Shown in pieces: positions 1 to 21,664 of a DNA stretch of 64,000 bases (position 1 is the stretch's first letter; every line of letters starts with the position of its first letter). The notes under the pieces are model-generated. The model worked only from the letters and a program-made list of their open reading frames with translations. It was not told the origin of the DNA and made no database searches. Source of the DNA: Tubulanus polymorphus (Eukaryota > Animalia > Nemertea); contig NC_134033.1 in the NCBI RefSeq assembly GCF_964204645.1, positions 12,160,655 through 12,224,654 of the forward strand, given 5' to 3'. Made by a program: the position numbers and the translations under genes.

Positions 1-1
1 T

Positions 2-301
2 AACTTAGCGTTAGAGAAATACAATAAAGCTGCAGAAGAATATAGAGAAAAGAGGCAAAACTATATGGATTACATCAATAAAGAATTATATGATCAGAAG
101 ATTTCACATAGAGATTTTCAATCAGTTGATGATGCAATGAGTTTATATAACGCAGTAACAAATAAAGAAAAATTACATCTATACAAACCTAAATTATCAG
201 ATTATTATACCCCAAGTAAAGAACAACAGAAATATGAAATGATATGGATTTTAGGTGGAACAGTTATTGTTATATTTATTGCTTATAAATTTACTAATTA
301 G
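2..301 (+). CDS. Polinton small protein with C-terminal transmembrane helix (5' end outside window)
   Basis: Frame is open from the window edge (NLALEKYNKAAEEYREKRQNYMDYIN...) and ends in hydrophobic WILGGTVIVIFIAYKF. Confidence 0.7.
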   Translation, partial: NLALEKYNKAAEEYREKRQNYMDYINKELYDQKISHRDFQSVDDAMSLYNAVTNKEKLHLYKPKLSDYYTPSKEQQKYEMIWILGGTVIVIFIAYKFTN

Positions 302-320
302 TAATTTTTTTGTTAAATAA

Positions 321-755
321 ATGGAAGATAAAGTTGATAGTATTGATATTATTCCTCATGATATAAATAAAACTAAATTAAAAACATATTTAGAAAGACA
401 AATATTAGAATTTGAAAGTGACTTAAAGATAAAAAAGAAAAAATATCTAAAAAGTAAAATTACATATTATTTGATTATAAGTGGTTCGGTTACAATTAGT
501 TCTGTAATAACATTTTTAGCAATATTCAGTCCATTAACACCTTTAGCTATATCAATTGGTGTATTAGGATTAAGTTCAAGTGTTTTAACTGGTATAAGTT
601 CAAAATTAAATATAAAAAGTAATAAAGAAAAAATAAAATCTAATATAAAAGAAATTAATAAATTAAAGAACACACTAGATTATATAATAAGTTTAAATGG
701 CCATATAACAGTTGAAGAACAAGATAAATTATTAAAAGAATTAATAAATTATTAA
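321..755 (+). CDS. Polinton protein, two predicted TM helices flanked by coiled coils
   Basis: 144-aa ORF with ATAAATG start; hydrophobic segments YYLIISGSVTISSVITFLAIF and LAISIGVLGLSSSVLTGI. Confidence 0.75.
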   Translation: MEDKVDSIDIIPHDINKTKLKTYLERQILEFESDLKIKKKKYLKSKITYYLIISGSVTISSVITFLAIFSPLTPLAISIGVLGLSSSVLTGISSKLNIKSNKEKIKSNIKEINKLKNTLDYIISLNGHITVEEQDKLLKELINY

Positions 756-771
756 TTTTTTAGTTATATAA

Positions 772-2108
772 ATGGGGTTTCCAAAAGCTTTCCAATATAA
801 TAAATCACATGAATATTATAAATATAATACTCCAGCAATAGATTTTAGTAACATGATAATATATAAAAATTTAGTTTTACCTTCATTGATTAATTTAGAA
901 ATTTATGTTACTGAAACAAACTATTTTATTTCTAAAATGGAAAATATATTTAATACATATGAAGTTACTTTTACTCGAGATGAATATAATATATATAAAC
1001 TAAAATCTAATATGAAATATTGGCAGAATCAATTAAATTTTGCTGTTCATTGTGCAACAGCTGGTTGTGGTGTAAGTTGGCATGATCACTTGAATAACTT
1101 AGATAAAAATTTGAAATATTCTGATTTAAAATTCATTCATACAATATTTAGATTTCATGTATACTTTCAAATTAGAATTATATTAAATGAATTAGAATGC
1201 CCTTTACCTGGATCAAAATATTTTAAAGAATTAGATAATAATATTAATCTATCTAAGTTTTATAAAATATGTAATGAATTTAATATAAATATTAATTTCG
1301 ATTTTAGAGCGCATGGTAAATTGCAAGGTGTCGGTGAACAGTATGAAATAAAAAGAATTGATTTTATGCATAGAATTGGAGCTTATCATAATTATAAAAT
1401 TAATAATAATAATGGTTGGGTTTATTTTATTGAATCTTATAGTGAAGGATTTACAAAACCCGGTATACAAAGAATAAATCAATCAATTAGAACTTATTTG
1501 ATATGTATTTTAGGTGCACAAGTTGAAACAAGATCACCAATAGTTGGAAATAATAGTACTTCATTTGATGCGCAGAAACAATTCAAAGTATTATTTGAAG
1601 ATTCCATTCATAATGATAAAAATAGATCGATTCCAGAAAACATTGTAAGATATCAAAATTATTTAGATAAATCACATATTAGATTAAATTATTGTATAGG
1701 ACCTAATCTATTAATTATTTCTAATGATTTAGTATTAAAGATGGGAAATATAATTGGTTATAATAATCTAATTAAAACTGCAACAATAAATAATTCAATT
1801 GGATTAAATGATATAAATAAAAAGATTATTACTGCTCCAAAATTAATGGAAGGTGAAAAAAATAAAAACATATTCAATCAACAGAAACTAAAACTAATAA
1901 TATTAAATTGAATAATGATTCCAAAATAAAAGATTACAATACTATAGAAAATGGTGCCGTACGGCACCCACACGGTGATATTAAAACCGATAAAATTCAA
2001 CATGATATAATTAAACTAAATAATGATAATAAATTTCATGAAAATACTAAATTAGCTATAACTTGTATAGGAATTGTTATAGGAGGAATATTATATTTTA
2101 AATTTTAA
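772..2108 (+). CDS. Polinton conserved hypothetical protein; ORFs 772-1911 and 1908-2108 are probably one gene split by a frameshift near 1865
   Basis: 379-aa ORF with ATAAATG start and WQNQLNFAVHCATAGCGVS motif. The downstream 66-aa ORF starts at TTG without the ATAAATG motif, is open back to ~1866 in the -1 frame and ends in a TM helix. Confidence 0.65.
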
Positions 2109-2124
2109 TTTTTTTATTATATAA

Positions 2125-3582
2125 ATGGATGTAGAAGGTGGAGAAGATATTGGAATGGATCCTTTTGATGAACCTAACATAACTGATGAACAACCACCTG
2201 ATTTTGATGAAACAAGTTTTAATGATGGTAATGAGCCAGAATATAATAATAATTTGAATATGCCTGATTATATTAAAAATGCTGAATCACAATTAAATCC
2301 TGAAAATTTAGACCCAGATTTAGTAAAACAAGATTTAGATAATTTAAACAAAATACCTAAATTAGAAGATTTAATTGAAAAATCTAATTTTAACATAAAT
2401 GATGAAGACGTTGGACTTTTAGCAGATCAATTGAAATTTTTAGATAATGGTAAATGTTATTATCGTTTGAAAGGTGATTATTATATTGATATCACTTATA
2501 AAAATAATAAAAATAAAATATTATTAGAATCAACTTTAGAAAAATTAAAACCAGATAGAATTAAAATAATAAGTAATAGTAATGAAATAACTGATGTTAC
2601 ACAAAAAGAAATAGATGATAATATAGATGTATTTAAACAAAGAATTAATGAATTATTTGAAATAATCAAAAAGAAATCAGAAACAGAAACAACTTCTGAA
2701 CAGAATATAACTTCCAAAAATAGTAAACTTAGATCAAATAAAGTTCCAATTGAAAAACTTTTACCGAATGGATTACTTGATGCAACAGATCAAGAATTAG
2801 AAGATTTAGATATATTTTCTGATAAAGCAATTAGAGAAATTATTAGTATAAGACTTGCATCTGATAAAATTGCACATAATAAAAGTATAAGAGATTTTAA
2901 AATTAGAACTTTAGAAAAAGAATTAACTGATAAAAATAAAGAAATAGAACAATTAAAGTCTGATTTAGATCATCAAGTAATTGATGAAATAGAATATAGG
3001 CAAAAAGAATTACGTTTAGAAAAAGAAATTAGTAATTTAAAAGATAATTTAGAAGTACAGAAAGAAGAAATTAAATTATTATTAAAATCATATGATTATA
3101 ATATTAATAGATTAAAAGTTATTTTTAAAGATTTGTTGATTAAACCAAATTCTGAAATATCATTAAAAGACAGGATGAAGTTATTATTTAAATTAGAAGG
3201 AATAACAATTCTTTCAATTCTAACAGCTGTAACTATGTTATTTACAACAATTGGTTTAGCAATATCAAATGCTTCGAAATCTACTCCTACTCCCAATAAA
3301 ACAGATAAACCACCGAATAATAATAATTCTATACAAGATAAAGTTAAAGATGGTTTAAAGAAATTAGCAAAATATTTATGGGAACTATCTAAAAAATCTG
3401 CTGCAGCATTGCCAGGAGTTATTGCATCAATTGTTGGTTTTATATTGAAATCTGCAGGAAACATTATTAACTTTGCTGCTGAACATATTATTTTATTTTT
3501 AATTACAGTTGTAAGTGCTATTATTTTTGGGTTAGTAAATATGATATCAAAAAGATATCAAGAAAAAAATAATAAAAAATAA
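2125..3582 (+). CDS. Polinton coiled-coil membrane protein (acidic N-terminus, long coiled coil, hydrophobic/amphipathic C-terminal helices)
   Basis: 485-aa ORF, ATAAATG start; GITILSILTAVTMLFTTIGLAI, AAALPGVIASIVGFIL and IILFLITVVSAIIFGLV segments. Confidence 0.8.
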   Translation: MDVEGGEDIGMDPFDEPNITDEQPPDFDETSFNDGNEPEYNNNLNMPDYIKNAESQLNPENLDPDLVKQDLDNLNKIPKLEDLIEKSNFNINDEDVGLLADQLKFLDNGKCYYRLKGDYYIDITYKNNKNKILLESTLEKLKPDRIKIISNSNEITDVTQKEIDDNIDVFKQRINELFEIIKKKSETETTSEQNITSKNSKLRSNKVPIEKLLPNGLLDATDQELEDLDIFSDKAIREIISIRLASDKIAHNKSIRDFKIRTLEKELTDKNKEIEQLKSDLDHQVIDEIEYRQKELRLEKEISNLKDNLEVQKEEIKLLLKSYDYNINRLKVIFKDLLIKPNSEISLKDRMKLLFKLEGITILSILTAVTMLFTTIGLAISNASKSTPTPNKTDKPPNNNNSIQDKVKDGLKKLAKYLWELSKKSAAALPGVIASIVGFILKSAGNIINFAAEHIILFLITVVSAIIFGLVNMISKRYQEKNNKK

Positions 3583-3606
3583 ATAATTAATTTTTTTGTT
3601 AAATAA

Positions 3607-4854
3607 ATGAGTGGGAGTTATATAAGTCCTTCGAAGAATCATAGAATATCTAATGCTATTAAAGCAGAAAGATCACATCATATAATTACTCATAACCCTT
3701 CAAATATTAATCCCGATGAAACTTTATATGTTAGAATTCCTAGATTAACACAAAATACTTTTTATGTTCCAAACAGTATTTATTTATCAGCTGATATAAA
3801 AGTAATCGGTAATAATAATAATTATGTCGTTGATAATGTTGGAAGATATTTGATTAAAAAGTTAACAATAAAGATTGGTCCGGAAACAGTTTTCTCATTA
3901 GATGATTATAATTTATTTATGCATTATAAAGATTTATGGTTAACTAAAGAAAATAGAAATAATATGATATTTCAAGGAATTCAATCAGAAAACCAAAATA
4001 AATTAAGATCTGAAGCCAATAACGCAGTAGTAAATAATGGCGTAGATAATTTGATTAAAAAGATTTATGGAAGCAAATATAAAATTCCATTAGACTTTGA
4101 ATTGATAAATAATAATGCACCTTTATATAAATACGCAATTCAAGAAGATATTATATTTGAGATAACATTTGCTCCTGTAAATGAAATTGTATTATCTAGC
4201 GTTAACAAAGATATGAGTTATAAATTATCGAATATATGTTTAGAATATGATACAGTAACTGATGAAAATATTTCAAATATAATTCAAACTCAATACAATC
4301 AAGGATTTTCATTATTATATGATTATATTGATAAATTTAAAACCGTAACTATTAATGCAAATGATGAAATTATTAATGAGAATATTAACTTCCCAAGAAG
4401 ATCTATTAAAGGTATATTAATATTTTTTACCATTGCAACATATTCTAATGGTGCAATAAATGTTGATAATTATTATAATCCTGAAATAACAAAAGTAGAA
4501 ATAACTATCGAAGGAATAGCAAATAAAATATTTTGTCAAGGAATGAGAATGATTGATCAATGGCCAGAAATTAGAAAACATTTTATGAATGAAAAAGTAA
4601 AATCATCTGAAAATTGTAACATTAATCAAATTGATTATTATACCGGTAATAAATATGCATTATGGTTAGATTTTAGAACAACAGAAGATAATTCATTACA
4701 TGGTTCTGGAAAAAAACTACAAAACACTAAAGATGGAATACAATTATTCATGAAAAAGAATAAAGGAATCAAAAATTTTAAAATGCACATTTATATTATA
4801 TCTGACGCACAATTAAATATTGTAAATTCTCAATTAGATAGTATTCAATATTAG
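3607..4854 (+). CDS. Major capsid protein (double jelly-roll), Polinton/adintovirus type
   Basis: Intact 415-aa beta-rich ORF (NPSNINPDETLYVRIP, NVGRYLIKKLTI, ICLEYD, YALWLDFRT) resembling invertebrate Polinton capsids; adjacent to integrase and ATPase. Recognised from memory, not by search. Confidence 0.75.
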   Translation: MSGSYISPSKNHRISNAIKAERSHHIITHNPSNINPDETLYVRIPRLTQNTFYVPNSIYLSADIKVIGNNNNYVVDNVGRYLIKKLTIKIGPETVFSLDDYNLFMHYKDLWLTKENRNNMIFQGIQSENQNKLRSEANNAVVNNGVDNLIKKIYGSKYKIPLDFELINNNAPLYKYAIQEDIIFEITFAPVNEIVLSSVNKDMSYKLSNICLEYDTVTDENISNIIQTQYNQGFSLLYDYIDKFKTVTINANDEIINENINFPRRSIKGILIFFTIATYSNGAINVDNYYNPEITKVEITIEGIANKIFCQGMRMIDQWPEIRKHFMNEKVKSSENCNINQIDYYTGNKYALWLDFRTTEDNSLHGSGKKLQNTKDGIQLFMKKNKGIKNFKMHIYIISDAQLNIVNSQLDSIQY

Positions 4855-4884
4855 AAATATAAAGTTAAAATTAAGGATATATAA

Positions 4885-6012
4885 ATGGGTGGTAAAAAAA
4901 CTCCTAATACTAAAGAACAATATTTAAGAAATTTATATTACAACCCTGAGAGTTCGGTTGCTTATTCTTCTACCAAAAATATATGGTGTAAAGTAAAACA
5001 AGATAAATTAGATAAGATAATCCCACAAAATTTAGTTAAATATAAAGATATAAATGAATTTATGTTAGAACAACCAACATATACAACACATAAAAAAATT
5101 GTTAGAAAATATAAAACTCGTAAAACTATGGTAAGTTATGTAGATCAACAGTGGCAAGGAGATTTAATTGATATGAAAAATGTTAAGAAAGATAATGATG
5201 ATTATTGGTGGTTATTGAATATAATTGATATTTTTAGTCGTTATGTATGGAGCTTCCCACTTTATAGAAAAGATGCTGTACAAACATCAAATGTTTTAAG
5301 AAAATTTCTTTCGGATGATAAACTAAAACCAGAAAAAATACAATTTGATGATGGATAAGAATTTGATAATTCACTTGTTCATGAACTCTTAGATAATCAT
5401 AATATTAAATATTTTTCAACAAAATCAGATAAAAAAGCAGCAGTTGTTGAACGATTTAATAGAACATTAAGAACAAGAATGTGGAAATATTTTACAGCAA
5501 ATAATACTTTTAAATGGATTGATGTTTTACCAAAATTGATAGAAGGATATAATAATTCTTATCATTCTTCTATTGGAATGAAACCTATTGATGCTAGAAA
5601 ATCTGAAAATGCTGAAATTGTTTGGAATAATTTATATGGAGCATTTCTTATAGATGATTTTGGTGAACCTAAATTTAAAGTTGGTCAAAATGTTAGAATT
5701 TCTAAGTATAAAAAGATATTTGATAAAGGATACGATCGAAATTTTACTAGAGAAATATATAAAATAAAAAAGGTAATAACAACAAAACCATATGTCTATA
5801 AATTAGAAGATTTAGATGGTGAAGAAGTTGATGGCTACTTTTACGAAGAAGAATTAAGTTTAACTACTGAAAATCTAGAACAAGAATATAAAATTGAAAA
5901 AGTATTAAAAACAAAAACTATTAAAAGAAAAAAATATTCTTTAGTAAAATGGGTTGGATGGCCAGATAAATTCAATGAATGGATATTATCAAGTAAAATT
6001 AAAAATATATAA
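4885..6012 (+). pseudogene. Retroviral-type (rve) integrase with C-terminal chromodomain, interrupted by in-frame TAA at 5356-5358
   Basis: QWQGDL, IDIFSRY, QFDDG*EF, VVERFNRTL give the DDE triad. ORFs 4885-5358 and 5479-6012 are in the same frame with open sequence between. C-terminal YKIEKVL...LVKWVGWPDKFNEW is a chromodomain. Confidence 0.92.
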
Positions 6013-6621
6013 ATGAATAAGGAATTATTCATATTTGAGCCTCATAATATGTTAATTTCTGGTGTAACAAATTGTGGAAAAACGTATTTTATATTAAATT
6101 TATTAGAAACTGTTTACAAAAACTATTTTGATAATATAGTATTATTTTGTCCAACATATGAATTTAATCAAACTTATGATAGAAATATTACTAGGAATAA
6201 TAAATTTATTATATTAGATCCTAAAACAGTAAAAGAAAATTTAGATAATTGTATTAAAATAGCAATTGATATTTATAAAGGATCAAATACATTATTCATT
6301 ATAGATGATTGTGCTAATCTACATGATTCAAAAGTTAGAGAAAGTGAGTTATGCTATTTAGCTTTCTCTGGGAGACATTTTGGGATAACAACTTGGGTTT
6401 TAAATCAAAAATATAATTCAATTGTTAAAGACTTTAGAGAAAACATTAGATTTCTAGTTTTATTCTACAATAAAGATAGAAAATCAATGAAAAATGCACT
6501 TGAGGAAAATGATATTATTCCACATGATTTACATAATGAATATATGGATGAGTTGAAAAATATTAAAAGATCAAAATTACTATTTAGATTACAACACCCA
6601 TTTAAATATGAATTTATTTAA
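6013..6621 (+). CDS. FtsK/HerA-superfamily (A32-like) genome-packaging ATPase
   Basis: Walker A GVTNCGKT, Walker B FIIDD, GRH motif followed by NQKY. Confidence 0.9.
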   Translation: MNKELFIFEPHNMLISGVTNCGKTYFILNLLETVYKNYFDNIVLFCPTYEFNQTYDRNITRNNKFIILDPKTVKENLDNCIKIAIDIYKGSNTLFIIDDCANLHDSKVRESELCYLAFSGRHFGITTWVLNQKYNSIVKDFRENIRFLVLFYNKDRKSMKNALEENDIIPHDLHNEYMDELKNIKRSKLLFRLQHPFKYEFI

Positions 6622-6624
6622 ATT

Positions 6625-6862
6625 CAATTAGTTTGTTAATCTAGTTGAATTCTAGTTATTGGTAGTTGTAACAAAAATCAAATAGATTTAACAATATTTT
6701 AACTAGCTTGTTAATCTATTTTAATTCTAGTTACATTCTAGTTGAATTCAAGTTGTTAGTAGTTGAAACAAAAATCAACTAGATTTAACAAGAAATAAAT
6801 AAAAACAACAATATTTCAACTAGCTTGTTAATAGTTACATTCTAGTTAAATTCTAGTTGCAA
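6625..6862. repeat. Intergenic array of TCTAGTT/CTAG motifs arranged as imperfect ~100-bp direct repeats
   Basis: CTAGTTGAATTC(T/A)AGTT...AACAAAAATCAA(A/C)TAGATTTAACAA occurs at ~6641 and ~6738; AACTAGCTTGTTAAT occurs twice. Confidence 0.6.
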
Positions 6863-6890
6863 CATCACACAATTAATTTTTGTTATATAA

Positions 6891-7496
6891 ATGGTAGGTG
6901 AAAAGAAAATAAAATCTAAAAATGGTGATGTTCCAATTGAAAAAACTTTAGATGATTTAGGAATAACAGAAACAAAATTAACTCCAGATGATGGTGCTTT
7001 AAATAATGTTACAACAAATAATAATTATGAATATTATCTTTATTGTAAACATCAATTAGAAATATTAATAGCATCTGGAAAATGTAAAAATTTTGTCGGT
7101 AAAAATTTAACTTATAATGAATTAGATACAATGAAATCAGATGAAATTATTAGATTATTTAAGATTTATGAAGCCGCGAGACCAGCTAGAATTAATGACG
7201 CGATATCAGAAAATGTAGTAAAAGGTTATAGTAAATTATGTAATTATATACTACCAATTGAAGATGAAAATAGATTATATTCCGGTTTAAAAAATGATTA
7301 TTTAGTTATGACTGAATTAAATAAATGGATTGGATATTTATCATTTCAATTAGGTGGATTTATGACATTATTATCAACTGGGGTTATAACATTTTCAAAT
7401 ATTGAAAGTAAAAATATTTCTATAATAAATGAGCGAGGTGAAAGAAGTGAAGGAATTAACTGTGAAGAAAAAACCGAGAACTCAGAAACAAATTGA
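6891..7496 (+). CDS. Polinton hypothetical protein
   Basis: 201-aa ORF with TATAAATG start and same composition as neighbours. Confidence 0.7.
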   Translation: MVGEKKIKSKNGDVPIEKTLDDLGITETKLTPDDGALNNVTTNNNYEYYLYCKHQLEILIASGKCKNFVGKNLTYNELDTMKSDEIIRLFKIYEAARPARINDAISENVVKGYSKLCNYILPIEDENRLYSGLKNDYLVMTELNKWIGYLSFQLGGFMTLLSTGVITFSNIESKNISIINERGERSEGINCEEKTENSETN

Positions 7497-7881
7497 ATGG
7501 TCTCGGCAATTAGGAATTAAATCACAAGAATATAAAAAAGCTGTAAAAGAAAAAATAAGTAATAAAAATGTTAATAAAAATGGTGAAAATATTGTTATTT
7601 CTACTCCTTCTGATAATAGAATATTTGATAAATATTTATATTTTACAGTTGGATTTGTAATTGTATTCATTTTGATTGGGTGTAATTGGTATAAGAAATC
7701 AAATAAAATTCATGATATTAGTAATTCTGAAACAACTGCTATCAAAAATGAAAATACTTCTGAAATTCCAAAATTGATAATAAAAAAATGGATTAATATT
7801 TTAGAAAAAAAGCAAAAAAAAATAATTGAATATCTCACTACTTTTGTCTATCTATGCGGAGCAATTAAATTGTCCAGATAA
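7429..7881 (+). CDS. Polinton hypothetical protein, basic N-terminus plus one TM helix (3' end uncertain)
   Basis: ATAAATG start; KKKPRTQKQIEWSRQLG; YLYFTVGFVIVFILIGCNW. Confidence 0.65.
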   Translation: MSEVKEVKELTVKKKPRTQKQIEWSRQLGIKSQEYKKAVKEKISNKNVNKNGENIVISTPSDNRIFDKYLYFTVGFVIVFILIGCNWYKKSNKIHDISNSETTAIKNENTSEIPKLIIKKWINILEKKQKKIIEYLTTFVYLCGAIKLSR

Positions 7882-8141
7882 GTCATTTCGGATTCTAGAT
7901 ATTCATTATTTTTATTAATTTATTTTGTTTTTATTTGAATGTTTGAATTTGAATTTGTTAATCAATTAACATAGTAATTGATTACTAATTTGATTAAAAA
8001 TTATATCATAATTAAGTTAAAAATACATAATTCATTTATCAGTTTTCATTCTTACATTCTTTTCATTCGGAATAATTTATAATTTCAAATTTCACATATT
8101 TTTTTAGCACCAACAACATTTACTTAGGTGTTTTAGCTAAG

Positions 8142-8148
8142 TATATAA
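8142..8148 (+). promoter_or_regulatory. TATA box (TATATAA) ~30 nt upstream of the predicted structured RNA
   Basis: TATATAA at 8142-8148; first paired base of the RNA is G8173; T4 run at 8458-8461 follows the closing stem. Confidence 0.45.
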
Positions 8149-8172
8149 GGCAATTCATTCAACCACTGGAGT

Positions 8173-8461
8173 GCCGCCGGGCTTGGCTTGCAGGGGCATT
8201 TCGAAAATGCACCTTTGTCCACCCTCCGTGGTTCTCCTTCAGTTTCGACTTTCGATCCTCCTTTCGGGGGTAAGGGGTTGATAGGAAATGCATTAGGCGC
8301 CTTTAATATAATGTGTTTCCTGTCAACCATTGAAGGAGAATTGGTGAGGTGTGGGTCACAGGGGTGTAAGTAGAAATGCTTGGGGATAGGTATCTCGTGG
8401 CGCCTCTCAATAACGGGATGCTTATCCCCTAAAAACTCTGTGAGTCAAGTCGGGTGGTTTT
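8173..8461 (+). ncRNA. Putative Polinton-encoded structured non-coding RNA (~290 nt) with twin GGCGCC-loop hairpins
   Basis: Nested helices found by hand: 8173-78/8453-58, 8180-95/8436-51 (16 bp, 5 G-U), 8196-202/8373-79, 8209-18/8358-67, 8230-43/8329-42, 8276-95/8309-28 (20 bp, 3 G-U), 8382-98/8413-29 (17 bp, 3 G-U), small hairpin 8257-70. GAA/AGUA loop-E motif at 8203-05/8369-72. Confidence 0.8.
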
Positions 8462-8801
8462 GCTAAAACTTACCGTAAAAACATTGAAATATTCCTTTTA
8501 ATCACGAGAGAATGATGACTATCCTCCTATCGTCACGGCCGAGCTAATTTAAATAAACCTCGTTTTCAGAAACCAATGAAAACGCAGTAATTCAATACCA
8601 GCTAACTGGTTTGTGTGTGTTGTATGTACTACGTGCTTATTATATAACAACAACGTTGTGCAACACCTGTTTGATTGATCAATATTCAAATGAAGCACTC
8701 TCTTATAATAACATGTAACAGATGTACTGTATGATTGTAGTTGTTTATAAAACGACTAAGGTCATTTTGGATTCTAGATATTCATTATTTTTATTTTTTA
8801 T

Positions 8802-9128
8802 TTAATCAACAATTTCTAAATCATGATGACCGTCTTCATTTTTCCCATGATATATTATTTTAAATCCTACTAAATCTTTCAATTCCTCCATACTCAATGA
8901 AACCCATTTATCGGGTAAAAACACTTTAAATTCTCGTGATGTACTAACATTACAGTAGCTTAAATTAGCTGATACTTTCTCTCCATATTTAGTTTTTATC
9001 TTTTCTAATTTCAATATTTTATGTTCAATTTATTTTGTAACATCAACTAACTTTTTTATTTCAAATTGTTTTTTTGCTGGTTTTATTCTGTTATTTATTG
9101 TTGCTAAGAATGCTTTTCTATCTCCCAT
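8802..9128 (-). pseudogene. Small Polinton gene (~108 codons, possibly OB-fold/SSB-like) with in-frame TAA at codon 33
   Basis: ATAAATG start at 9128 on the minus strand (MGDRKAFLATINNRIKP...VTK*IEHKILKLEKIKTKYGEKV...KVFLPDKW...IIYHG), in frame with track ORF 8802-9014. Fold call is tentative. Confidence 0.6.
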
Positions 9129-9213
9129 TTATTAGGAAAAAAAATTACTTGTGGTGATGAGTGGTGTCTCGCCCTCTCGCCCTCTGGTATGAAACCCCAC
9201 TTTTCTAATTACT

Positions 9214-9401
9214 GGTAGGTTTTCAGCGAGCTCGGTGGTCTGGTAGCATGACGCTGCGCTAGCAATTTACTGGCCCGGGTTTGAGTCTCGCTCTAAGCCC
9301 CTCTATTTTCTCATACTCCACACTAGAATTTCGGGAAAAAATAGCCGAAGTAAACAAAAACACTCTGCCGTATACGGTAAAATATCCACTGCGTTTTAGT
9401 A
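9214..9401 (+). mobile_element. Right half of a tRNA-containing MITE, cut by the Polinton insertion
   Basis: Near-identical to 29557-29744 and 41780-41967; contains A-box-like TGGTCTGGTAG and B-box-like GGTTTGAGTC, then the right TIR. Confidence 0.7.
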
Positions 9402-11925
9402 CACCAAATCAGTTGTCTAAACTTCGGCTTGTGACTTTCTTACCTTCCATATAAGTAGCAAATAACTACAATTCCAATTCCTACGCCGGCCGCAGCTGTT
9501 GCGAGTATCGGTATATCCATATTACACTGTAAATATATTGTCCAGGTCCTTACCTCGTTAAAATATGATCTTAGGCATTTCTATAATATAACATACAAAC
9601 CGTTCATTATTTGATGGTTGAGATCTTATGCAACCTACGAGCAATTATCTAACAATGATATCGTAAAAATCTTAATTATCAACCGATTTTCAAAATGTTT
9701 TCACCGAGCTGTGGATTTCGTAAGCGCGGTCATTATGGTGCCAAATACGCATGCGTCAGTTGGCTACGTCTTCTTAAAACTACCTCTATGGATTGCTTTT
9801 AGAATCAACGCGCAGCGCTGCTGTCCAGTGATGTCGAATCCCACACACCCCTGACTGTATGATTGACAGCGTTACTGATCGTACCAGTGTGTAGTACACT
9901 GATATAGGGCGAGCTTCCTACTGTTTTTTAGATGAAAGTCGAATGAATGTAGTGACAGTCCAATAGGTAAATGCGCGTTTACATCTCTGGGAGTAAGATC
10001 GTGACGTCATCGTGACGAAGTGACAAACAAAATGGCGGATATTTCAACGGCAGGGAATGAGTGTAGTTCAAGAGGGCATCTTCAGTAATTTGATGTTTAA
10101 AATAGGATGGACAGTACATACATAGAGTCTGCGCGTTCGGAGAGGCAGCGATCTATCAGAGTTTAACATTTTGTTTAGAAGCTGTTTTAGTTGTCGAATC
10201 TGATTGAAGATGAATTTTATGTTCGAAAAAAGTGGAAGATTTGTAACAATAATCAACAGAATAACAATTAGAAATAACAACCCTAAATGTAACCGAGTTA
10301 GGCAGAGTCTATCAATTCAAAAAGGATGAAAAAAATCTAACTTAGGCATAAGCAACGTTGTGGTAGGCCTAGTTAGTTACCTAATCGTTGGTGGTAAGCA
10401 TTTTATAATCGGATGGGTGTGGTTTGTGAAAATATCCGATTGTGAAACTAAACCACAGACAGGTTACTGACTATGGTAGGCCACGCTGTTTACGTTGTGC
10501 AATGCCTATTGTGTCTAAACATATAGGAAAACTCTCCTCTGATACCTTTAGCGAAAAGCCAAAAAGAACATTTACCGGTAATACAACGTTCCTGTGATGA
10601 CAATATGCGGCGCCTCACTAGGCTTTGGAAATAACATGTACCAGGTGGCGCTAGCTAGCGGGCGCGCGTGAGGCGGTGTTTTATTTCAGGAAATGAATTG
10701 TGGAAACAGCCAATCAAATCCACGGATATCCACAATTCATTTCCTGAAATTTCCTGAAATTGACCAATCGCTGTGCTTGTTAGCGGTGACGTAATTTCGG
10801 GATATACCGTTGAAGAGCGCCATATTTGATTTTCCGATCGTAAACACACAGCGCAGTTACAGTCACAGAAAGCAGACTAATTCGTTCCAGATCATCTGAT
10901 TAAATTACCCGATTATCACGTAAGTGTATGAATTCAGTACTTCCAACATGCGAGGTTTCATACCCGATTAAATCTTTTATCGCAAATGCTTGATTATGCC
11001 AATTTTTTGGCGAAAAACTTCTTACTTTTCACTCGCAAATTCAATCAACTTCAATTTATTACAATTATTTTGGGTTAAGCCTATCCTTCATCATCAAAAT
11101 GTGAATCGTGAACACTAGAAGAGCGAGAGAGTAGAAGTTTTCACTAGAAGGCATTACGGATTGTTTCATTTTTCCATTCCGTGATATTTTGTCAATTCTG
11201 TTACTGTTAGGCCCTATAACTTATAAGTCCTTGTTTTATTTAGGCCTACTCCCGTGCGTGGAATAGGTCGATTATCAGCCCAAAAATGGAACAGCCCTTC
11301 CTAGCGAATCATTCAGTATTCCCAGCGTCGTAACTGCGTATTAGCCTATGGGTCCGTAAATTCCTTGATGCGCTATGAATTCAAAAAATCTAGAATCCAG
11401 GCCAGGGGTAAAATCTAAAATTCTGACTAAGCATTCCCCTTAAAATTCCTATCAACCTCCCTTGAATTATATAAATTAAAAATCATCAATTGTCTAAATC
11501 TTTTTTCAACTCAATTTGTGAATGCGACCCTCCCTGTACTTATGCATATAGGCCATTGACCAGAAATCTCTCCCTACAACTTGCAATTAACTTGAAACAA
11601 TAGTCACAATGATACCACAGCCACTGGCTGTCTCTATTATTGTTTTGTGTATTCTGTGAAAGGTCAATATAAGTGGGAGCTTATTATATCCCTTTATTAT
11701 GACAGGCATTGTGCTCACAAAGACTTGGTTATCAAAACATAGGCCAATGTGGTTATCAATTCAAATGTTTTGATTTCCAATGACAATAAAGCCCTAGCTT
11801 GCTAATTTCTCAATTACCTAGTTGATGTAATTACTTTCATATGTAAGATGAAAATTGAAATTGTGTTAAACTGGACCCTTAAAATTTGTTCGATGTTTAA
11901 TTGATGTTTCTCTTTTTATTCTAGC

Positions 11926-13470
11926 ATGGAACCAATTTTCCGTCGCCTAAAAAATCGTACGATCGACACGTTTGACACCGATGCCGCCAAGAACCATAAA
12001 AGCACTAGTGGTTGGGCAACTCTGGACCCTGCGGAGAAAGTTTTGGCGGATGCGATGCGCCGGGTTGCCCAGGCCGGAGGAGATCAGTCAAACCCGAAAC
12101 ATTTGTTAGGCCAGTATACACTTCAGTTTGGTAAGTTTAGGGGTAAGAAATTTCAGTGGATACTCTCTAATGCTCTTGGCTTTGCAGTAAACCTCTACGT
12201 CATGGATGAATGTGAGAAGCAAAAACCACATCCCAAGATAGACCACAAGAACCATGCCGACAACAAGAAAGCCCTCTTCAAATACATGAGGCTGTTTCCC
12301 GAAGCCAAGGAAGCGATTGAGAGGAGGAGAGCTGTCCATCAAGAGCGTGTGAAACCTACGATTTCAAGTAAGTCAAGTTTTCAATATACAGTCGGATCGT
12401 TTGATATCAGAGTTGTTTTGTGCTTGTTCTATTTATGAAAAATTTTTTATTTTCACAGAAGCTCGTCAGACTCAACCAGCCGGGAGCCAACCAACTGTGA
12501 CAACTAGGAGGAGTCGCCCATCTGCTACAACCAGGAGCCAACCAACTGCGACAACTAGGAGTCAACCCAGCTCATCGACCACAACTGAGAACGTCTCGAT
12601 GCCGTCTGATGATGATGATGATCTACTGACAAGTGTCATCACTCTTGAAGCGCAGTTATCTGGTAATATATCTTAATTCTAATGATATTTTTATTGTAGA
12701 TTCAATTGATACATCATGAGATATACATCCTACAAATTTTTGCAGTGTTTTGGACGGATTGTAAAGATACCATCCAAGTTAACCGCAGTCCTCCCTTTCG
12801 GCCATCCACTCCTAGTAATTGCAGCCATATTGTAACATTTAATCATTTATTTCTCAAAATTTACAGTTTATATCTGGATAAGTTGGTAAGATTAATGTTG
12901 TGTAGGGTTCCTAGAATATGCTTTTATAAATGTGTAGCTATTGTAAAATGGTATTTTCTTCCAATCTATTTTAATGTACCTATTTCTTTATAAAAACTGG
13001 GTAATCATGCTTTATATGTATGCAGTACTGTCTCTTTATTACATAATCCATCTTTATGATATTGGTATATAGTTGCTATAATGGACATTATGAATATGAT
13101 AACACACACACTCTCTCTTTCTCTCTCTGTCACTTGCAAAATGCAACACTTCTATCCTCTCCTGCTTAATAACTTATTTTTACAGTGATTTCCCTTTTGT
13201 AATCTCATTTTTCCAGTGAGTCACTCTTATTCCTCATTTAGAGGTATTTAGATGGTAACATTACAGTGATGCGGTTTTCTTTTGTTCCTTTTGTCTATCA
13301 TTCTGTTTTTGTTTAATATTTCAGTGAAATTGTACCGGACTTTATGATGATTTAGAATTCTTATGCTATAAACCTCAATCATGAATGAGATAGTAAATTC
13401 ATTTTCTATTTTTCTCTATCTAGCCTCTCAGACAACACGGACTACAGCGACTACGACTACACCGACCACG

Positions 13471-13532
<62 letters not shown>

Positions 13533-15992
13533 ACCGACTACGACAACCGCGATCGATAACGACCTCCGCTTGCTTTTACCAGAATGGCGTAAAGTTCTGT
13601 CCGAATATGAACAGAAGTGGATCACCAAAACCCTCTTCATGAAAACCAAGAGTGGGAGGCTGGAGATGGATTTAGCCGCGTCAATCAGCTTTGGTGGAAT
13701 CCTCCACAGCCATTGGTAGTTGCAGGCCAGGTACCCAGCAGTACCTTGCCCACCGCCTGTTCTTGTGGATGCCTCGACGACTGTGGCAAGTCCATCCGCG
13801 TTGGAATGAGGATCGAGCTATTGCAGCTGTTACTCAAGACAAACAGATTTCCTGCTACAGTGGAAAGCTACGCCATCATATCAATGAGCTAAGTCAAACT
13901 GTCCTTGGAAAGAAGCTTTTACCAGCGTTCCAAGGGCCATTGCGTTACACCATTGAACCTATAGGTATTGATTATCTTTACAGCCAAACAGGAGAGGCAC
14001 CAGTGTCTAACACTAGGTTGCGTCTAGCCGAGGAGGAACGCTTGCTGGACTCTGCTTCTGACCAGGAATTTAGTGACAGCCCTGTTGATGAGCCGCTGCC
14101 TCTGTATGATGTGGAAGACTTGACAATAGCTGTGCCGACTGATGAGGATAACGACTTCTGTAAGTCACAATGTTTTTAGAAAATTGTTTGAATAATAATT
14201 CTATTTCAGTTCTGTTAAGTTCATTCCTGTAATTGATTCCTCTGATTACTGTTGACTTTGTGACATGCCCTCAGCTGAATCCATTACGTTTTGACTAAGG
14301 GATAATGGTTTTGTGTATTATTTTTCATTGTAGTTTCTCCGACTGTGACACCAACTGCACCAGTTCTTCCCGTTGACACCATGTCCGTTGATACTCCGTT
14401 GCCGATGGAAACTGAGGAGGTCACTGAGCTTGAACCCGATGATGCTGTGCCAGAATTTTGCTTACCGACCCTTGATACTCCAGAGCTGCAGCCCTTTGAA
14501 CAGTCGAATGTTCCATCTATTGAATCTCCCCTGGGGGATTCGGATGAGCATGTAAGTTTTCTATAAAAAAGGTTTTCGTTCGAGTTGTGTTGATGTTGTT
14601 AAAGAATTTAATTTCAAATATCTATTTTATTCAGGATTCTTTGGGACCAGACGGTATTGCTGGATTTGGAAAGGTTGATGCTTTGGCTGAGAAACTGGTA
14701 AACTTGGATGAGAATTCACTGGCAAACAACGAAGCTCGTGAAATCATTGATTTGTGGCAGAACTTGGACGACTACGACAAGAGGTCCATCATCAAACCAT
14801 GCCATCAACCAACTCTCAGTCAAGGTAGATTTCGAGCAACAAAGAAACGTTCTGGCTTGGCTCCTGGAGTTGAAAGTTCACGGAGGTAAGCCTAATCTAC
14901 TGTATTTTTCATTTCAAAATAAATGTACTAATAAGTCGAAATTGCCAATTGAATATTAAATGGCGATATAATCTTTGAGTTCAATTTGACCCTTGCAGGT
15001 TAACCTAAATAAACTTTATGTTAATCAAGTATTTATGATAATTTTCAGAGCTTTTCTGGGACCAAATTCGGCACCTGCTCAGTGGCCGACTTGTAATCGC
15101 TACGTCGAGACAACCATGGTGAAGCTCTGTGCGAAGTATCCAGCATCAAAAACGGTTGCAGGAGTGCGAGTTACGCGATGGATCCTTATCTCCCGTGCCT
15201 ACAAGCACATAAGAGACGTCGTCGTCGGAAATCCTGTGGTTATGCATCACTCGAACATTCAGCTTCCAGAGTTGAATATGACGACTATAACCCAATGGTA
15301 AGTTAACCTTTTATGCCCCACCTCTTAACCATCTAAATTATTATTAATCATATTGAGATTATGTTCATAAAATGGTCTATTTCTTTTTTCATTTTAGGTG
15401 GAATCGACGTTCTAAGAAGCAAGAGGAAATGGTTCTCAGGCAGGGAATTCAAATCCCGAATCCTTCTATGGCAAGCCAGCAACCATTGCTTATTGCTTGT
15501 CAAAAGCCTTCTGTGCTGCCGAGAGGATCCTCTGATGATCGCCATACCTTTGTACTTCCTACGAACACTGCTGGAATGGCGAAAATAAAGCGGCGAAGAA
15601 CAACTCCTTCGGCAACTGCGACTTTTGCATCAGTAGCTGCGGCAGCAACTAGTAAGCGGCCTGCACCGCAGATTCCTCAGAATGTTATTGATTTGTCAGG
15701 CGCTCATCAGTCCCTCAATACAGATACTACCGCAGATACTACTCGATTGATGGGTTGCTCACAAATCATGACAGGACCTGTTGCGTCTAAGGAGCAGAAA
15801 GCTGAAAGTTTGCAGCCAGCCACTACCCAGCTAATAATTGTTGCACCGCCAAAAGACCAGGCCGTTCTGCCTAAGGTCATCCATTCTGAATCCATGGGAA
15901 ATATACAGGTTGTTCCTTACACAACCCATATGCACAGATTACAAAGGCAGCAGCAATTAGAAGCTGGGGTGAGTCGCAGAAATCTACCTTGA
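11926..15992 (+). pseudogene. Spliced, internally deleted transposase-like gene (DUF6729-type family), left arm
   Basis: Approximate exons 11926-12367, 12459-12662, 13424-14160, 14333-14551, 14635-14885, 15049-15297, 15399-. Motifs LQFGKFRGKKFQW, LWWNPPQP, HRLFLWMPRRLW, RWNEDRA, PGVESSRR, AQWP. Frameshifts near 13670-13740. Confidence 0.65.
13441..13548 (+). repeat. (ACT)n microsatellite encoding poly-Thr; shorter mirror copy at ~17341-17440
   Basis: Directly visible; the repeat number differs between arms. Confidence 0.95.
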
Positions 15993-17356
15993 CTGAGAGT
16001 TGGTTGATGGCGTGGTTTGATGATGGACCTCTTGTCGTAGTCGTCCAAGTTCTGCCACAAATCAATGATTTCACGAGCTTCGTTGTTTGTAAGAGCCAGT
16101 GAATTCTCATCCAAGTTTACCAGTTTCTCAGCCAAAGCATCAACCTTTCCAAATCCTGCAATACCGTCTGGTCCCAAAGAATCCTGAATAAAATAGATAT
16201 TTGAAATTAAATTCCATGAATCTGAAAATGTACTGTACAATGGTAATTGAACTGTCACCAGTTCTGAGCAATTTGTCTTTAACAACATCAACACAACTCG
16301 AACGAAAACCTTTTTTATAGAAAACTTACATGCTCATCCGAATCCCCCAGGGGAGATTCAATAGATGGAACATTCGACAGTTCAAAGGGCTGCAGCTCTG
16401 GAGTATCAAGGGTCGGTAAGCGAAATTCTGGCACAGCATCATCGGGTTCAAGCTCAGTGACCTCCTCAGTTTCCATCGGCAACGGAGTATCAACGGACAT
16501 GGTGTCAACGGGAAGAACTGGTGCAGTTGGTGTCACAGTCGGAGAAACTACAATGAAAAATAATACACAAAACCATTATCCCTTAGTCAAAACGTAATGG
16601 ATTCAGCTGAGGGCATGTCACAAAGTCAACAGTAATCAGAGGAATCAATTACAGGAATGAACTTAACAGAACTGAAATAGAATTATTATTCAAACAATTT
16701 TCTAAAAACATTGTGACTTACAGAAGTCGTTATCCTCATCAGTCGGCACAGCTGTTGTCAAGTCTTCCACATCATACAGAGGCAGCGGCTCATCAACAGG
16801 GCTGTCACTAAATTCCTGGTCAGAAGCAGAGTCCAGCAAGCGTTCCTCCTCGGCTAGACGCAACCTAGTGTTAGACACTGGTGCCTCTCCTGTTTGGCTG
16901 TAAAGATAATCAATACCTATAGGTTCAATGGTGTAACGCAATGGCCCTTGGAACGCTGGTAAAAGCTTCTTTCCAAGGACAGTTTGACTTAGCTCATTGA
17001 TATGATGGCGTAGCTTTCCACTGTAGCAGGAAATCTGTTTGTCTTGAGTAACAGCTGCAATAGCTCGATCCTCATTCCAACGCGGATGGACTTGCCACAG
17101 TCGTCGAGGCATCCACAAGAACAGGCGGTGGGCAAAGTACTGCTCGACGTTGGGTACCTGGCCTGCAACTACCAATGGCTGTGGAGGATTCCACCAAAGC
17201 TGATTGACGCGGCTAAAATCCATCTCCAGCCTCCCACTCTTGGTTTTCATGAAGAGGGTTTTGGTGATCCACTTCTGTTCATATTCGGACAGAACTTTAC
17301 GCCATTCTGGTAAAAGCAAGCGGTGGTCGTTATCGATCGCGGTTGTCGTAGTCGGT

Positions 17357-17406
<50 letters not shown>

Positions 17407-18946
17407 CGTGGTCGGTGTAGTCGTAGTCGCTGTAGTCCGTGTTGTCTGAGAGGCTAGATAGAGAAAAATAGAAAATGAATTTACTATCTCATTCATGATT
17501 GAGGTTTATAGCATAAGAATTCTAAATCATCATAAAGTCCGGTACAATTTCACTGAAATATTAAACAAAAACAGAATGATAGACAAAAGGAACAAAAGAA
17601 AACCGCATCACTGTAATGTTACCATCTAAATACCTCTAAATGAGGAATAAGAGTGACTCACTGGAAAAATGAGATTACAAAAGGGAAATCACTGTAAAAA
17701 TAAGTTATTAAGCAGGAGAGGATAGAAGTGTTGCATTTTGCAAGTGACAGAGAGAGACAGAGAGAGTGTGTGTGTTATCATATTCATAATGTCCATTATA
17801 GCAACTATATACCAATATCATAAAGATGGATTATGTAATAAAGAGACAGTACTGCATACATCTAAAGCATGATTACCCAGTTTTTATAAAGAAATAGGTA
17901 CATTAAAATAGATTGGAAGAAAATACCATTTTACAATAGCTACACATTTATAAAAGCATATTCTAGGAACCCTACACAACATTAATCTTACCAACTTATC
18001 CAGATATAAACTGTAAATTTTGAGAAATAAATGATTAAATGTTACAATATGGCTGCAATTACTAGGAGTGGATGGCCGAAAGGGAGGACTGCGGTTAACT
18101 TGGATGGAATCTTTACAATCCGTCCAAAACACTGCAAAAATTTGTAGGATGTATATCTCATGATGTATCAATTGAATCTACAATAAAAATATCATTAGAA
18201 TTAAGATATATTACCAGATAACTGCGCTTCAAGAGTGATGACACTTGTCAGTAGATCATCATCATCATCAGACGGCATCGAGACGTTCTCAGTTGTGGTC
18301 GATGAGCTGGGTTGACTCCTAGTTGTCGCAGTTGGTTGGCTCCTGGTTGTAGCAGATGGGCGACTCCTCCTAGTTGTCACAGTTGGTTGGCTCCCGGCTG
18401 GTTGAGTCTGACGAGCTTCTGTGAAAATAAAAAATTTTTCATAAATAGAACAAGCACAAAACAACTCTGATATCAAACGATCCGACTGTATATTGAAAAC
18501 TTGACTTACTTGAAATCGTAGGTTTCACACGCTCTTGATGGACAGCTCTCCTCCTCTCAATCGCTTCCTTGGCTTCGGGAAACAGCCTCATGTATTTGAA
18601 GAGGGCTTTCTTGTTGTCGGCATGGTTCTTGTGGTCTATCTTGGGATGTGGTTTTTGCTTCTCACATTCATCCATGACGTAGAGGTTTACTGCAAAGCCA
18701 AGAGCATTAGAGAGTATCCACTGAAATTTCTTACCCCTAAACTTACCAAACTGAAGTGTATACTGGCCTAACAAATGTTTCGGGTTTGACTGATCTCCTC
18801 CGGCCTGGGCAACCCGGCGCATCGCATCCGCCTTTCTCCGCAGGGTCCTGAGTTGCCCAACCACTAGTGCTTTTATGGTTCTTGGCGGCATCGGTGTCAA
18901 ACGTGTCGATCGTACGATTTTTTAGGCGACGGAAAATTGGTTCCAT
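15979..18946 (-). pseudogene. 3'-truncated inverted copy of the same transposase-like gene, right arm
   Basis: Mirror ORFs; 5-bp deletion frameshift near 18830; truncated at QGRF (15979). Confidence 0.65.
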
Positions 18947-21664
18947 GCTAGAACAAAAAGAGAAACATCAATTAAACATCGAACAAATTTTAAGGGTCCA
19001 GTTTAACACAATTTCAATTTTCATCTTACATATGAAAGTAATTACATCAACTAGGTAATTGAGAAATTAGCAAGCTAGGGCTTTATTGTCATTGGAAATC
19101 AAAACATTTGAATTGATAACCACATTGGCCTATGTTTTGATAACCAAGTCTTTGTGAGCACAATGCCTGTCATAATAAAGGGATATAATAAGCTCCCACT
19201 TATATTGACCTTTCACAGAATACACAAAACAATAATAGAGACAGCCAGTGGCTGTGGTATCATTGTGACTATTGTTTCAAGTTAATTGCAAGTTGTAGGG
19301 AGAGATTTCTGGTCAATGGCCTATATGCATAAGTACAGGGAGGGTCGCATTCACAAATTGAGTTGAAAAAAGATTTAGACAATTGATGATTTTTAATTTA
19401 TATAATTCAAGGGAGGATGATAGGAATTTTAAGGGGAATGCTTAGTCAGAATTTTAGATTTTACCCCTGGCCTGGATTCTAGATTTTTTGAATTCATAGC
19501 GCATCAAGGAATTTACGGACCCATAGGCTAATACGCAGTTACGACGCTGGAAATACTGAATGATTCGCTAGGAAGGGCTGTTCCATTTTTGGGCTGATAA
19601 TCGACCTATTCCACGCACGGGAGTAGGCCTAAATAAAACAAGGACTTATAGGGCCCAACAGTAACAGAAATGACAAAATATCACGGAATGGAAAAATGAA
19701 ACAATCCGTAATGCCTTCTAGTGAAAACTTCTACTCACTCGCTTTTCTAGTGTTCACGATTCACATTTTGATGATGAACGATAGGCTAACCCAAAATAAT
19801 TGTAATAAATTGAAGTTGATTGAATTTGCGAGTGAAAAGTAAGACGTTTTTCGCCAAAAAATTGGCATAATCAAGCATTAGCGATAAAAGATTTAATCGG
19901 GTATGAAACCTCGCATGTTGGAAGTACTGAATTCATACACTTACGTGATAATCGGGTAATTTAATCAGATGATCTGGAACGAATTAGTCTGCTTTCTGTG
20001 ACTGTAACTGCGCTGTGTGTTTACGATCGGAAAATCAAATATGGCGCTCTTCAACGGTATATCCCGAAATTACGTCACCGCTAACAAGCACAGCGATTGG
20101 TCAATTTCAGGAAATTTCAGGAAATGAATTGTGGATATCCGTGGATTTGATTGGCTGTTTCCACAATTCATTTCCTGAAATAAAACACCGCCTCACGCGC
20201 GCCCGCTAGCGCCAGCGCCAGAACACTCGACACTCAATACAAAGATCGTTCTTTCTGCCTACCAATTGCGTCTCTTATCAAATACCGGGTAACGGGGAAT
20301 TTAGAATAGGTGGAATAGAATACGAGGTTCGTATCAACGAAGAGAATACGACGTACATACATCTGATTCACTTAGAACCATTAGTGTCAGTGGTATATCG
20401 CTCACGCGAGCCATGATGGCTCACGCGAGCTCTTTAGTACACGCAGTATACGGGGCCCCTCGAACCGGCCACTCTCAGGAGTGGGTTAAATATCTGATGA
20501 CACATGTGATTTGTCTAGTTACGATAGTACTACAACTCCCTCCCCCAAATACACATTTTCCCTTTTTTCTTTTGCTTTTTTCACTTCACCTCCGAGGTAG
20601 TCGCTACGCCATCAAAGCAAAGCCATATGGCGAGAATAGTTTTCTTGTTCAAACAGTTCCTTCATGAAAGGCAAATATTTTTACCCCTCTTTAAATGACT
20701 TCATCGCGGAGTTGAAACAAGGAATTAAAAATGTTTTTTTTATGCCCCGGCGGTGACTTGTGCCGCGCACCAGGATTTGATCCATTGATTGCGCTTTTCT
20801 GTATCACTTCTCTCCGTCGAATTTGGGAGATGATTTTGATTTAAAGGGTTCCAGCTCAGATGTATGTAAAATGATTGAACGCAAGAGAGCAAGTGATATA
20901 CACGTACACGTAATTTATCATTTACACGATTCTAAAGTGATGGCCAACAACCGGCATCAGAGGAAATAGTTAACTAAGACATGTTGTCCTTAATTTAAGT
21001 GCATAAATCACACTATGAAAACATAAAGTAACCAATGGCAATTATACCAAAAATTTGAGTTTAACTAGAGAGCCCTGAAAATTCAAAATGTATCTATGAC
21101 ATGGGCGCCCTGCCACAGCGGAGCAGTACTCAGAAACCTAGGCTTCATCCGCCCCTGATTTATATATACGCCCCGAAACAGCTACTGCAGTGAACAACCG
21201 GCGAGCTCGACACCAGCGTTCTGAAATTCATAATCTTCGAACGCTGCAACTCGCTGCACGACGACCGTACTACGCGATCGGTTTACAGTCATTTTAGTCG
21301 TTCATTCGTCTGTATCAAACTCTCATCTTACTTTCACATCGTACGTTATACAAATCGTCCGCGCGTCACCTCAGCGTGACCGTACCAAGGAGTTTACACA
21401 CGCTCATCAATTTCAAATTCTATACAAACGTGTCTTTCTGCTGGTTAGTATTTGTAATACGGTATGGAGTTTACACCTGGGCGGAGTGGTACATATGTAC
21501 AACTAAAAATCTGATAATATAATCATACGAATATATACCCGCGTGGTGTCTGTCGATGTTGTTTGGAGTTTCGAGTTATATCATCTTCCGAAACATGAGC
21601 GACGTGCGTCATTTGTTCAGCTCAAATATTATCTGATACGGAATCGCGTTTAATTCGATTCCCG

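Follow-up and report, generated by a model that had tools for sequence, protein, structure and literature searches.

A Maverick/Polinton at the left of the window

The DNA analysed, referred to below as the window, is a 64,000-nt stretch of Tubulanus polymorphus (NC_134033.1:12,160,655-12,224,654, forward strand), and coordinates throughout are positions in it, those attached to a related locus excepted. Positions 1-9213 are the right part of a Maverick/Polinton of 23% GC, which continues past the left edge of the window (Table 1). We found in it the rve integrase, the double-jelly-roll capsid protein and the A32 ATPase by which such elements are recognised. The packaging ATPase and capsid genes that an earlier reading of the bare sequence (hereafter the sequence-only reading) had placed near a pair of hairpins were thereby confirmed, at 1.5 kb and 3.3 kb, respectively, from the RNA described below. 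The structure model of the capsid protein, of low confidence (pLDDT 54), matches the capsids of iridovirus, PBCV-1 and mavirus (best E 8e-9). The match of the integrase, in its split ORF, to PF00665 (E 7.8e-7) narrowly misses the curated cut-off; the same gene is a single ORF in four related loci (L001, L004, L005 and L012). No protein-primed PolB gene was found in 1-9213, where the element is truncated by the window edge, and a PolB fragment is present in one relative (L021). For the small gene on the minus strand, the counterpart in L001 gave a weak lead to a phi29-type SSB (score 0.87).

Only the right end of the element lies inside the window, where reads lead into a ~90-bp repeat ending at 9213. 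The loose ends at that position disagree among themselves (agreement 0.37), as for an element inserted at many sites. A joint of opposite strands, 7561/9124, was also seen in the reads. The direct repeat on both sides of the module with the RNA bears TTTTTNT on the plus strand and AATAAA on the minus strand and sits after the ends of two convergent genes; it could mark a cassette insertion or common transcript-end signals.

All eight ORF starts checked in the window (321-7881) read TAAATG, and so do those of most long ORFs in L001, L004-L006, L008, L011, L012, L014, L015, L017 and L019. In poxviruses, TAAATG signals the start of late genes (PMC3061580), and poxvirus-associated Polinton-like viruses exist (PMC11296320). 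Its presence at the ORF starts suggests that the element depends on a poxvirus-type helper. The papers matched in our literature search, among the matches listed, do not mention this start motif.

Table 1. Features of the element and of the predicted RNA (window coordinates unless a related locus is named)
Feature	Position	Strand	Basis or remark
Double-jelly-roll major capsid protein	3607-4854	+	Atlas neighbours; structure model
rve integrase with chromodomain	4885-6012	+	two ORFs in this copy
A32-type packaging ATPase	6013-6621	+	Pfam PF04665 (Pox_A32), E 2.7e-13
AT-rich spacer after the ATPase gene	window 6622-6890; L001 9085-9409; L004 3011-3167; L005 3527-3691; L006 1597-1761		
Direct repeat, left copy	7882-7925	+	35-44 nt; borders the 879-bp module with the RNA
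Candidate PSE place	8105-8125	+	assigned from position alone, by inference
TATATA box	8142-8147	+	23-nt spacer, then G8171 as predicted start
Predicted non-coding RNA	8171-8461	+	~291 nt, 50% GC; 112 pairs in the predicted fold, including 22 G-U
5' strand of terminal stem and of 7-bp helix	8173-8202	+	fold; pairs with 8436-8458 and 8373-8379, respectively
5' strand of 34-bp trunk	8208-8243	+	fold; pairs with 8329-8368
Two mini-hairpins, upper junction	8245-8270	+	fold
Hairpin 1	8276-8328	+	20 bp, 8276-8295 paired with 8309-8328
Hairpin 1 loop	8296-8308	+	GGCGCCUUUAAUA
Hairpin 2	8382-8429	+	17 bp, 8382-8398 paired with 8413-8429
Hairpin 2 loop	8399-8412	+	GGCGCCUCUCAAUA
Earliest T4 downstream of the predicted start	8458-8461	+	candidate Pol III terminator; closes the terminal stem; next T4 at 8496
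Direct repeat, right copy	8761-8803	+	35-44 nt; borders the 879-bp module with the RNA
Small gene	8802-9127	-	in-frame stop in this copy
Probable terminal inverted repeat, right end of the element	9124-9213		depth rise; loose ends at 9121/9124 and 9213

Two hairpins with like loops are arms of one predicted fold

Inside the element, a unit of about 290 nt stands out by a GC content of 50%, against 23% for the surrounding Maverick/Polinton. The sequence-only reading had described here two unrelated long hairpins whose loops carry the same self-complementary hexamer, GGCGCC. Both hairpins and both loops are present as described, with a mean pair probability of 1.00 for each hairpin, but they are not free-standing: both are arms of a single ~290-nt fold. 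The fold of 8200-8500 reaches -123 kcal/mol (z = -8.73), a stability that none of 100 shuffles equalled, and folding 8166-8465 gives the 112 pairs of Table 1, with the 5' and 3' ends of the unit pairing with each other. From bottom to top, the predicted structure consists of a terminal stem, a three-way junction bearing hairpin 2 and a 7-bp helix, followed by the 34-bp trunk and a junction with the two mini-hairpins and hairpin 1. The first mini-hairpin bears a B-box-like repeat. Since 22 of the pairs are G-U, the plus strand folds more stably than the minus strand (-156 and -92 kcal/mol, respectively), and these G-U pairs favour the plus strand as the RNA strand.

The two loops agree at 12 of their 13 bases once a single gap is allowed; among 300,000 random pairs of loops with matching composition, only 2 are as similar. 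In both, the hexamer is exposed at the 5' edge; a palindromic hexamer falls on that edge in 1.4% of random 13-nt loops, and anywhere in the loop in 10.7%. By scanning the window and 23 related loci (151,104 bases) with a hairpin descriptor (stem of at least 12 bp, loop of 9-17 nt), we found GGCGCC hairpin loops only at 8296 and 8399. The two-loop DNA pattern was also sought in viral contigs, where all six matches proved to be chance (tandem repeats or unrelated DNA, none in a long hairpin).

A coding function of the region is unlikely, since it holds only short overlapping ORFs (8188-8373 on the plus and 8133-8330 on the minus strand); it is further disfavoured by insertions and deletions in that region of a second copy type, presented below. 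Rfam gave no match at gathering score in the window, VA RNA and EBER families included, and the two matches obtained over 7800-9300 at E up to 10 were chance ones, neither of them inside the predicted RNA.

Promoter- and terminator-like signals at the limits of the unit

The distance from the TATATA box to G8171 matches the spacing of the human U6 and 7SK genes (PMC5703244). Thus the locus shows what is expected of a type 3 Pol III promoter, namely a TATA box with a +1 purine about 24 nt downstream, and none of the 14 other TATATA sites in 1-8140 has a G at the equivalent spacing. The same box also resembles the element's own gene-start motif, TATATAAATG, with which five of its eight ORFs start, and a polymerase other than Pol III is therefore possible. 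No host snRNA gene was found in the window.

At the other limit of the unit, the T4 run is preceded, inside the window's copy of the RNA, by seven T3 runs and no T4; such a T4 is a minimal, incomplete Pol III terminator (PMC5725217). In the second copy type, loose read ends indicate an internal T4 near +28 and a final T4 that is differently flanked, neither of which would be expected if the gene were strictly a Pol III one. It is very probable that the predicted RNA is transcribed from the element, and we lean, though only slightly, towards host RNA polymerase III reading the gene from a U6-type TATA promoter.

Directly past the T4 run, 8467-8490 shares ACC..AACATT with 8109-8122, and no TATA follows it. 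This stretch resembles a vertebrate U6 PSE. Sequence beyond 8474 varies among copies.

A second copy type retains the pairing and the loops

At least ten sequencing runs were matched, four of which contain the stretch, all from one study and one organism. We compared copies in the reads of three such runs together with one raw DNA run under the same species label. The unit is multi-copy: a second copy type (type B) accounts for ~26-31% of the depth in each of the four runs examined and diverges from the window's copy by ~16-17% inside the predicted transcript. Over 8278-8429, the region for which pairing was assessed and which leaves the outer terminal stem outside, the type B contig shows 25 differences from the window's copy.

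First, the 13 changes that fall on the 72 stem positions all keep their pair, an outcome seen in 177 of 300,000 random placements of the changes. Hairpin 1 has three two-sided changes (8281/8323, 8285/8319 and 8288/8316) and two one-sided ones, while hairpin 2 has five that are one-sided and pair-keeping; stem positions move freely between G-U and Watson-Crick pairs. A further two-sided change, at 8380/8431, lengthens the base of hairpin 2. Second, only one of the 27 loop bases is changed (P = 0.036): loop 1 is intact, and the sole change, at 8406, brings loop 2 closer to loop 1. None of the 12 hexamer bases differs (P = 0.11, non-significant alone), and no other palindrome was seen. Third, divergence ends where the predicted unit ends, with 17-18 differences in 97 nt before the T4 run and 1-2 in 52 nt after it (P = 0.004-0.02), and, upstream of +3 (8108-8172), at most 2 in 65 nt among the differences listed (P = 0.006). 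This divergence, confined almost wholly to the predicted transcript, marks the limits of the unit independently of the promoter argument. Net length is unchanged in hairpin 1, hairpin 2 and the 3' strand of the trunk. As judged from loose ends beside 8278 in three of the four runs, type B appears to be without the second mini-hairpin and its linker (8256-8275).

Covariation and loop conservation are here one evolutionary comparison, because only two sequence types, in one host, were seen; within it, the pairing retained between divergent copies supports the view that the RNA fold is under selection. Fast stems, frozen loops and near-identical flanks together point to ongoing selection on the RNA among copies. 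Because the stems change while the loops stay, we rejected the reading of the hairpins as pre-miRNAs, whose arms usually show the reverse pattern and are conserved rather than the loops.

As to how near-identical flanks came to surround a diverged transcript, the flanks may become homogenised and chimeric RNAs whose stems no longer match may be purged; alternatively, stems may diversify to evade silencing.

The RNA was not seen in the related loci

Searches based on the proteins yielded 23 related loci, all of them partial elements in metagenome contigs, and none in the viral contigs or the prokaryote genomes searched. Neither similarity to the RNA (blastn) nor a GGCGCC hairpin loop was found in any of the 23. 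The closest relative, L001, shares the order of ten genes with the window (ATPase 82%, capsid 76%). In the slot of the window's RNA, L001 holds a deoxynucleoside kinase gene (10340-10981; PF01712, E 1.7e-31), and no 100-nt window of this locus exceeds 35% GC. The slot, with the RNA here and the kinase gene in L001, is a cargo slot. Since the RNA is absent from it in L001 and was seen in none of the other partial loci, it would most likely be cargo of the element, judging from these comparisons. L015 also has a GC-rich patch, but this is a repeat within coding sequence and not a counterpart of the RNA.

Compared with L001, a small terminal gene (8785-9110) and a 97-bp piece (7817-7913) are inverted, so gene blocks have been rearranged. 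Several relatives have an AT-rich palindromic or repeat spacer after the ATPase gene, with a perfect 30-bp stem in L004; these spacers are candidate origins or transcript-end signals.

Do the two loops kiss?

Our leading reading, which as a whole we hold only tentatively, is that of an accessory non-coding RNA gene, likely of Pol III type with a U6-like TATA box, whose GGCGCC loops would probably kiss within one molecule and whose product would be a decoy resembling VA RNA and EBER. Any pairing of the two loops would give a 6-bp duplex with a computed energy of -14.1 kcal/mol. The same hexamer lies in the primer binding site (PBS) of MMTV and contributes to the dimerisation of its RNA (PMC4264320). 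By a rough count, hairpin 1, the kiss and hairpin 2 add up to 20+6+17 = 43 bp (45 in type B), facing a trunk of 41 bp plus two internal loops, or ~47 steps, between both junctions. In the predicted fold, these helix lengths fit a kiss inside one molecule: if hairpin 1 turned back at the upper junction, the loops would meet and close a two-helix bundle. We therefore find a part of the earlier interpretation sustained, namely that two sticky loops could form an intramolecular clamp, given selection on the structure, loops and hexamers kept in the single homologue and helix lengths that fit; its other part, a role akin to that of packaging RNA (pRNA), is not.

It is rather probable that the two loops kiss, and mostly intramolecularly. 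Hairpin 1, the 6-bp kiss and hairpin 2 would then close into a rod running alongside the trunk, in which the 3' part of each loop, rich in U and A, would bridge the kiss, and dimers could arise through loop swapping at high concentration. Against this stands the upper junction, where hairpin 1 joins the trunk without an unpaired base. Such a junction commonly favours straight stacking, which would place loop 1 ~67 steps from the lower junction, out of reach of loop 2. Palindromes, moreover, are unnecessary for an intramolecular kiss.

Instead of kissing, the loops could be twin binding sites for one host or viral protein, the RNA acting as a bivalent scaffold or sponge and the palindrome being incidental. 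What is shared and conserved is indeed the entire 13-14-nt loop, beyond the hexamer, a palindromic hexamer somewhere in such a loop is common, and three stem-loops of EBER1 are bound by L22 (PMC4378190); the conserved U/A-rich half of the loop fits either a protein site or the bridging strand of a kiss. We nevertheless consider twin protein sites unlikely, since two exposed all-GC palindromes per molecule would tend to pair with the energy given above, both hexamers sit at the same 5' edge, and the lengths of the arms fit a kiss.

Kisses between molecules, leading to dimers, rings or cages unlinked to the packaging motor, would make the RNA a counterpart, in an animal virus, of OLE, GOLLD and ROOL. 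Symmetric kisses of this kind do need palindromes, and OLE L9.3 and GOLLD L21a switch between palindromes (PMC12286853); hairpin 1 stacked straight on the trunk would also separate the two loops of one molecule. However, an internal kiss agrees with the lengths of the arms and is favoured by local concentration, identical loops fix no stoichiometry, and no covarying palindrome was seen, all of which makes a mainly intermolecular assembly quite unlikely. A bolder form of our leading reading seems to us no more probable than that. In it, the protein genes of the Polinton would be wired for a poxvirus-type helper through TAAATG and the RNA gene for host Pol III, so that a silent provirus would constitutively make an RNA-origami-like particle; this would be a two-helix bundle with a new symmetric kissing-loop module, able to swap loops into rings or cages, its stems engaged in an arms race and its loops fixed.

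Alternatively, the structure might never be transcribed and might serve as single-stranded DNA while the element replicates by strand displacement or is packaged. Polinton replication probably proceeds through single strands, the plus strand folds as DNA too (-60 versus -44 kcal/mol), and no RNA run was among the sequencing runs matched. This is nonetheless improbable, given that the fold has 22 G-U pairs and its changes pass freely between G-U and Watson-Crick, that the promoter- and terminator-like signals coincide with the two ends of the diverging block, and that what follows the ATPase gene in the relatives is another palindromic spacer, rich in AT, rather than this unit.

Even less support goes to a pairing of the loops with another RNA, such as the 3' end of tRNA-Lys, which would sequester uncharged tRNA or tRNA fragments to the benefit of an element rich in AT and in lysine. 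The retroviral primer binding site has GGCGCC as its core, and the hexamer is present in that of MMTV (PMC4264320). In the eight ORFs of the element, 230 of 2160 codons are for Lys, 207 of them AAA. Only ~7 pairs could form, and the acceptor stem would need to be opened. The base preceding the hexamer differs between the two loops, and no better complement was found inside the element, so that we regard this as very improbable.

The least credible of these proposals is that the RNA forms a ring on the A32 packaging motor in the manner of pRNA, as the sequence-only reading had suggested from the nearby ATPase and capsid genes and from the two loops per monomer. Such an RNA was seen in none of the 23 related loci, none of them a complete element; close relatives with the same ATPase and capsid lack it in the corresponding slot, as the kinase gene of L001 illustrates. 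The pRNA of phi29 has two different, mutually complementary loops (GGAC/GUCC) and its ring needs binding to the connector (PMC2582624); here, the same palindrome occurs twice in place of two different loops, which gives none of the left-hand/right-hand polarity of phi29 pRNA, and the RNA does not behave as an obligatory partner of the motor across the partial loci compared. A double-jelly-roll virion is not known to have a connector.

Comparison with known RNAs

VA RNA I/II and EBER1/2 are, like the predicted RNA, small, wobble-rich and highly paired RNA genes of DNA viruses (PMC4378190, PMC6599070), also with paired 5' and 3' ends and a 3' T-run, and adenoviruses have been proposed as relatives of Polinton-like viruses (PMC11296320). 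The wobble-rich stems of VA RNA serve as decoys against host dsRNA sensing and silencing defences (PMC6599070), and by analogy the predicted RNA may possibly be such a decoy, a role that we regard as doubtful. It differs from VA RNA and EBER in its length (~290 versus ~160 nt), its lack of an Rfam match, an upstream TATA box at U6 spacing, twin conserved palindromic loops and an invertebrate-type host. Furthermore, the apical loop sequence of VA-I is non-critical (PMC6599070), whereas the loops are the conserved part of the predicted RNA. By this analogy, it would be a viral RNA that works in the manner of VA and EBER, outside those families.

Other systems share the loops rather than the gene. 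The retroviral DIS of HIV-1, and the GGCGCC palindrome in the PBS of MMTV (PMC4264320), likewise present a GC palindrome of six bases in the loop of a hairpin; the predicted RNA has two such loops per molecule, on different stems, 13-14 nt long and with the palindrome at the 5' edge, and it is a stand-alone gene of a DNA element rather than a genomic RNA leader. Phi29 pRNA resembles it in that each monomer has two loops and the virus has a packaging ATPase (PMC2582624). OLE, ROOL and GOLLD also form kissing loops, some of them palindromic and symmetric, and are borne by mobile elements; they are, however, bacterial and larger, are multimers by cryo-EM (PMC12286853) and show neither sequence nor Rfam similarity to the predicted RNA. 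Finally, the Pol III pri/pre-miRNAs of BLV and MHV68 (PMC4378190) resemble it as a Pol III-type unit with two hairpins of pre-miRNA size (53 and 48 nt here), but in the predicted RNA it is the loops that are conserved while the stems change.

In the open-access literature, among the matches listed and as judged by title and start of abstract, we found no non-coding RNA gene described in a Maverick/Polinton, and the text examined of PMC11296320 contains neither 'promoter' nor 'noncoding'. The unit is likely an undescribed viral non-coding RNA. If our leading reading is true, RNA counter-defence of the VA/EBER type would reach beyond adenoviruses to related elements that integrate into the genomes of invertebrate-type hosts. 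The RNA, compact and easy to transcribe, would then also be suited to studying how a eukaryotic virus might build a natural clamp or cage from kissing loops.

The host flank

Beyond the element, the window holds three fragments of a host tRNA-like SINE, 98% alike (9214-9300, 29557-29643 and 41780-41866), and the element abuts one of them. A duplicated ANF-receptor exon lies at 21599-22354 and 48188-48943. Given the SINE copies and this exon, the host is an animal. An inverted duplication of a DUF6729 element occupies 11900-18950, and LINE-like reverse transcriptase frames were recognised by eye at 43047-45397.
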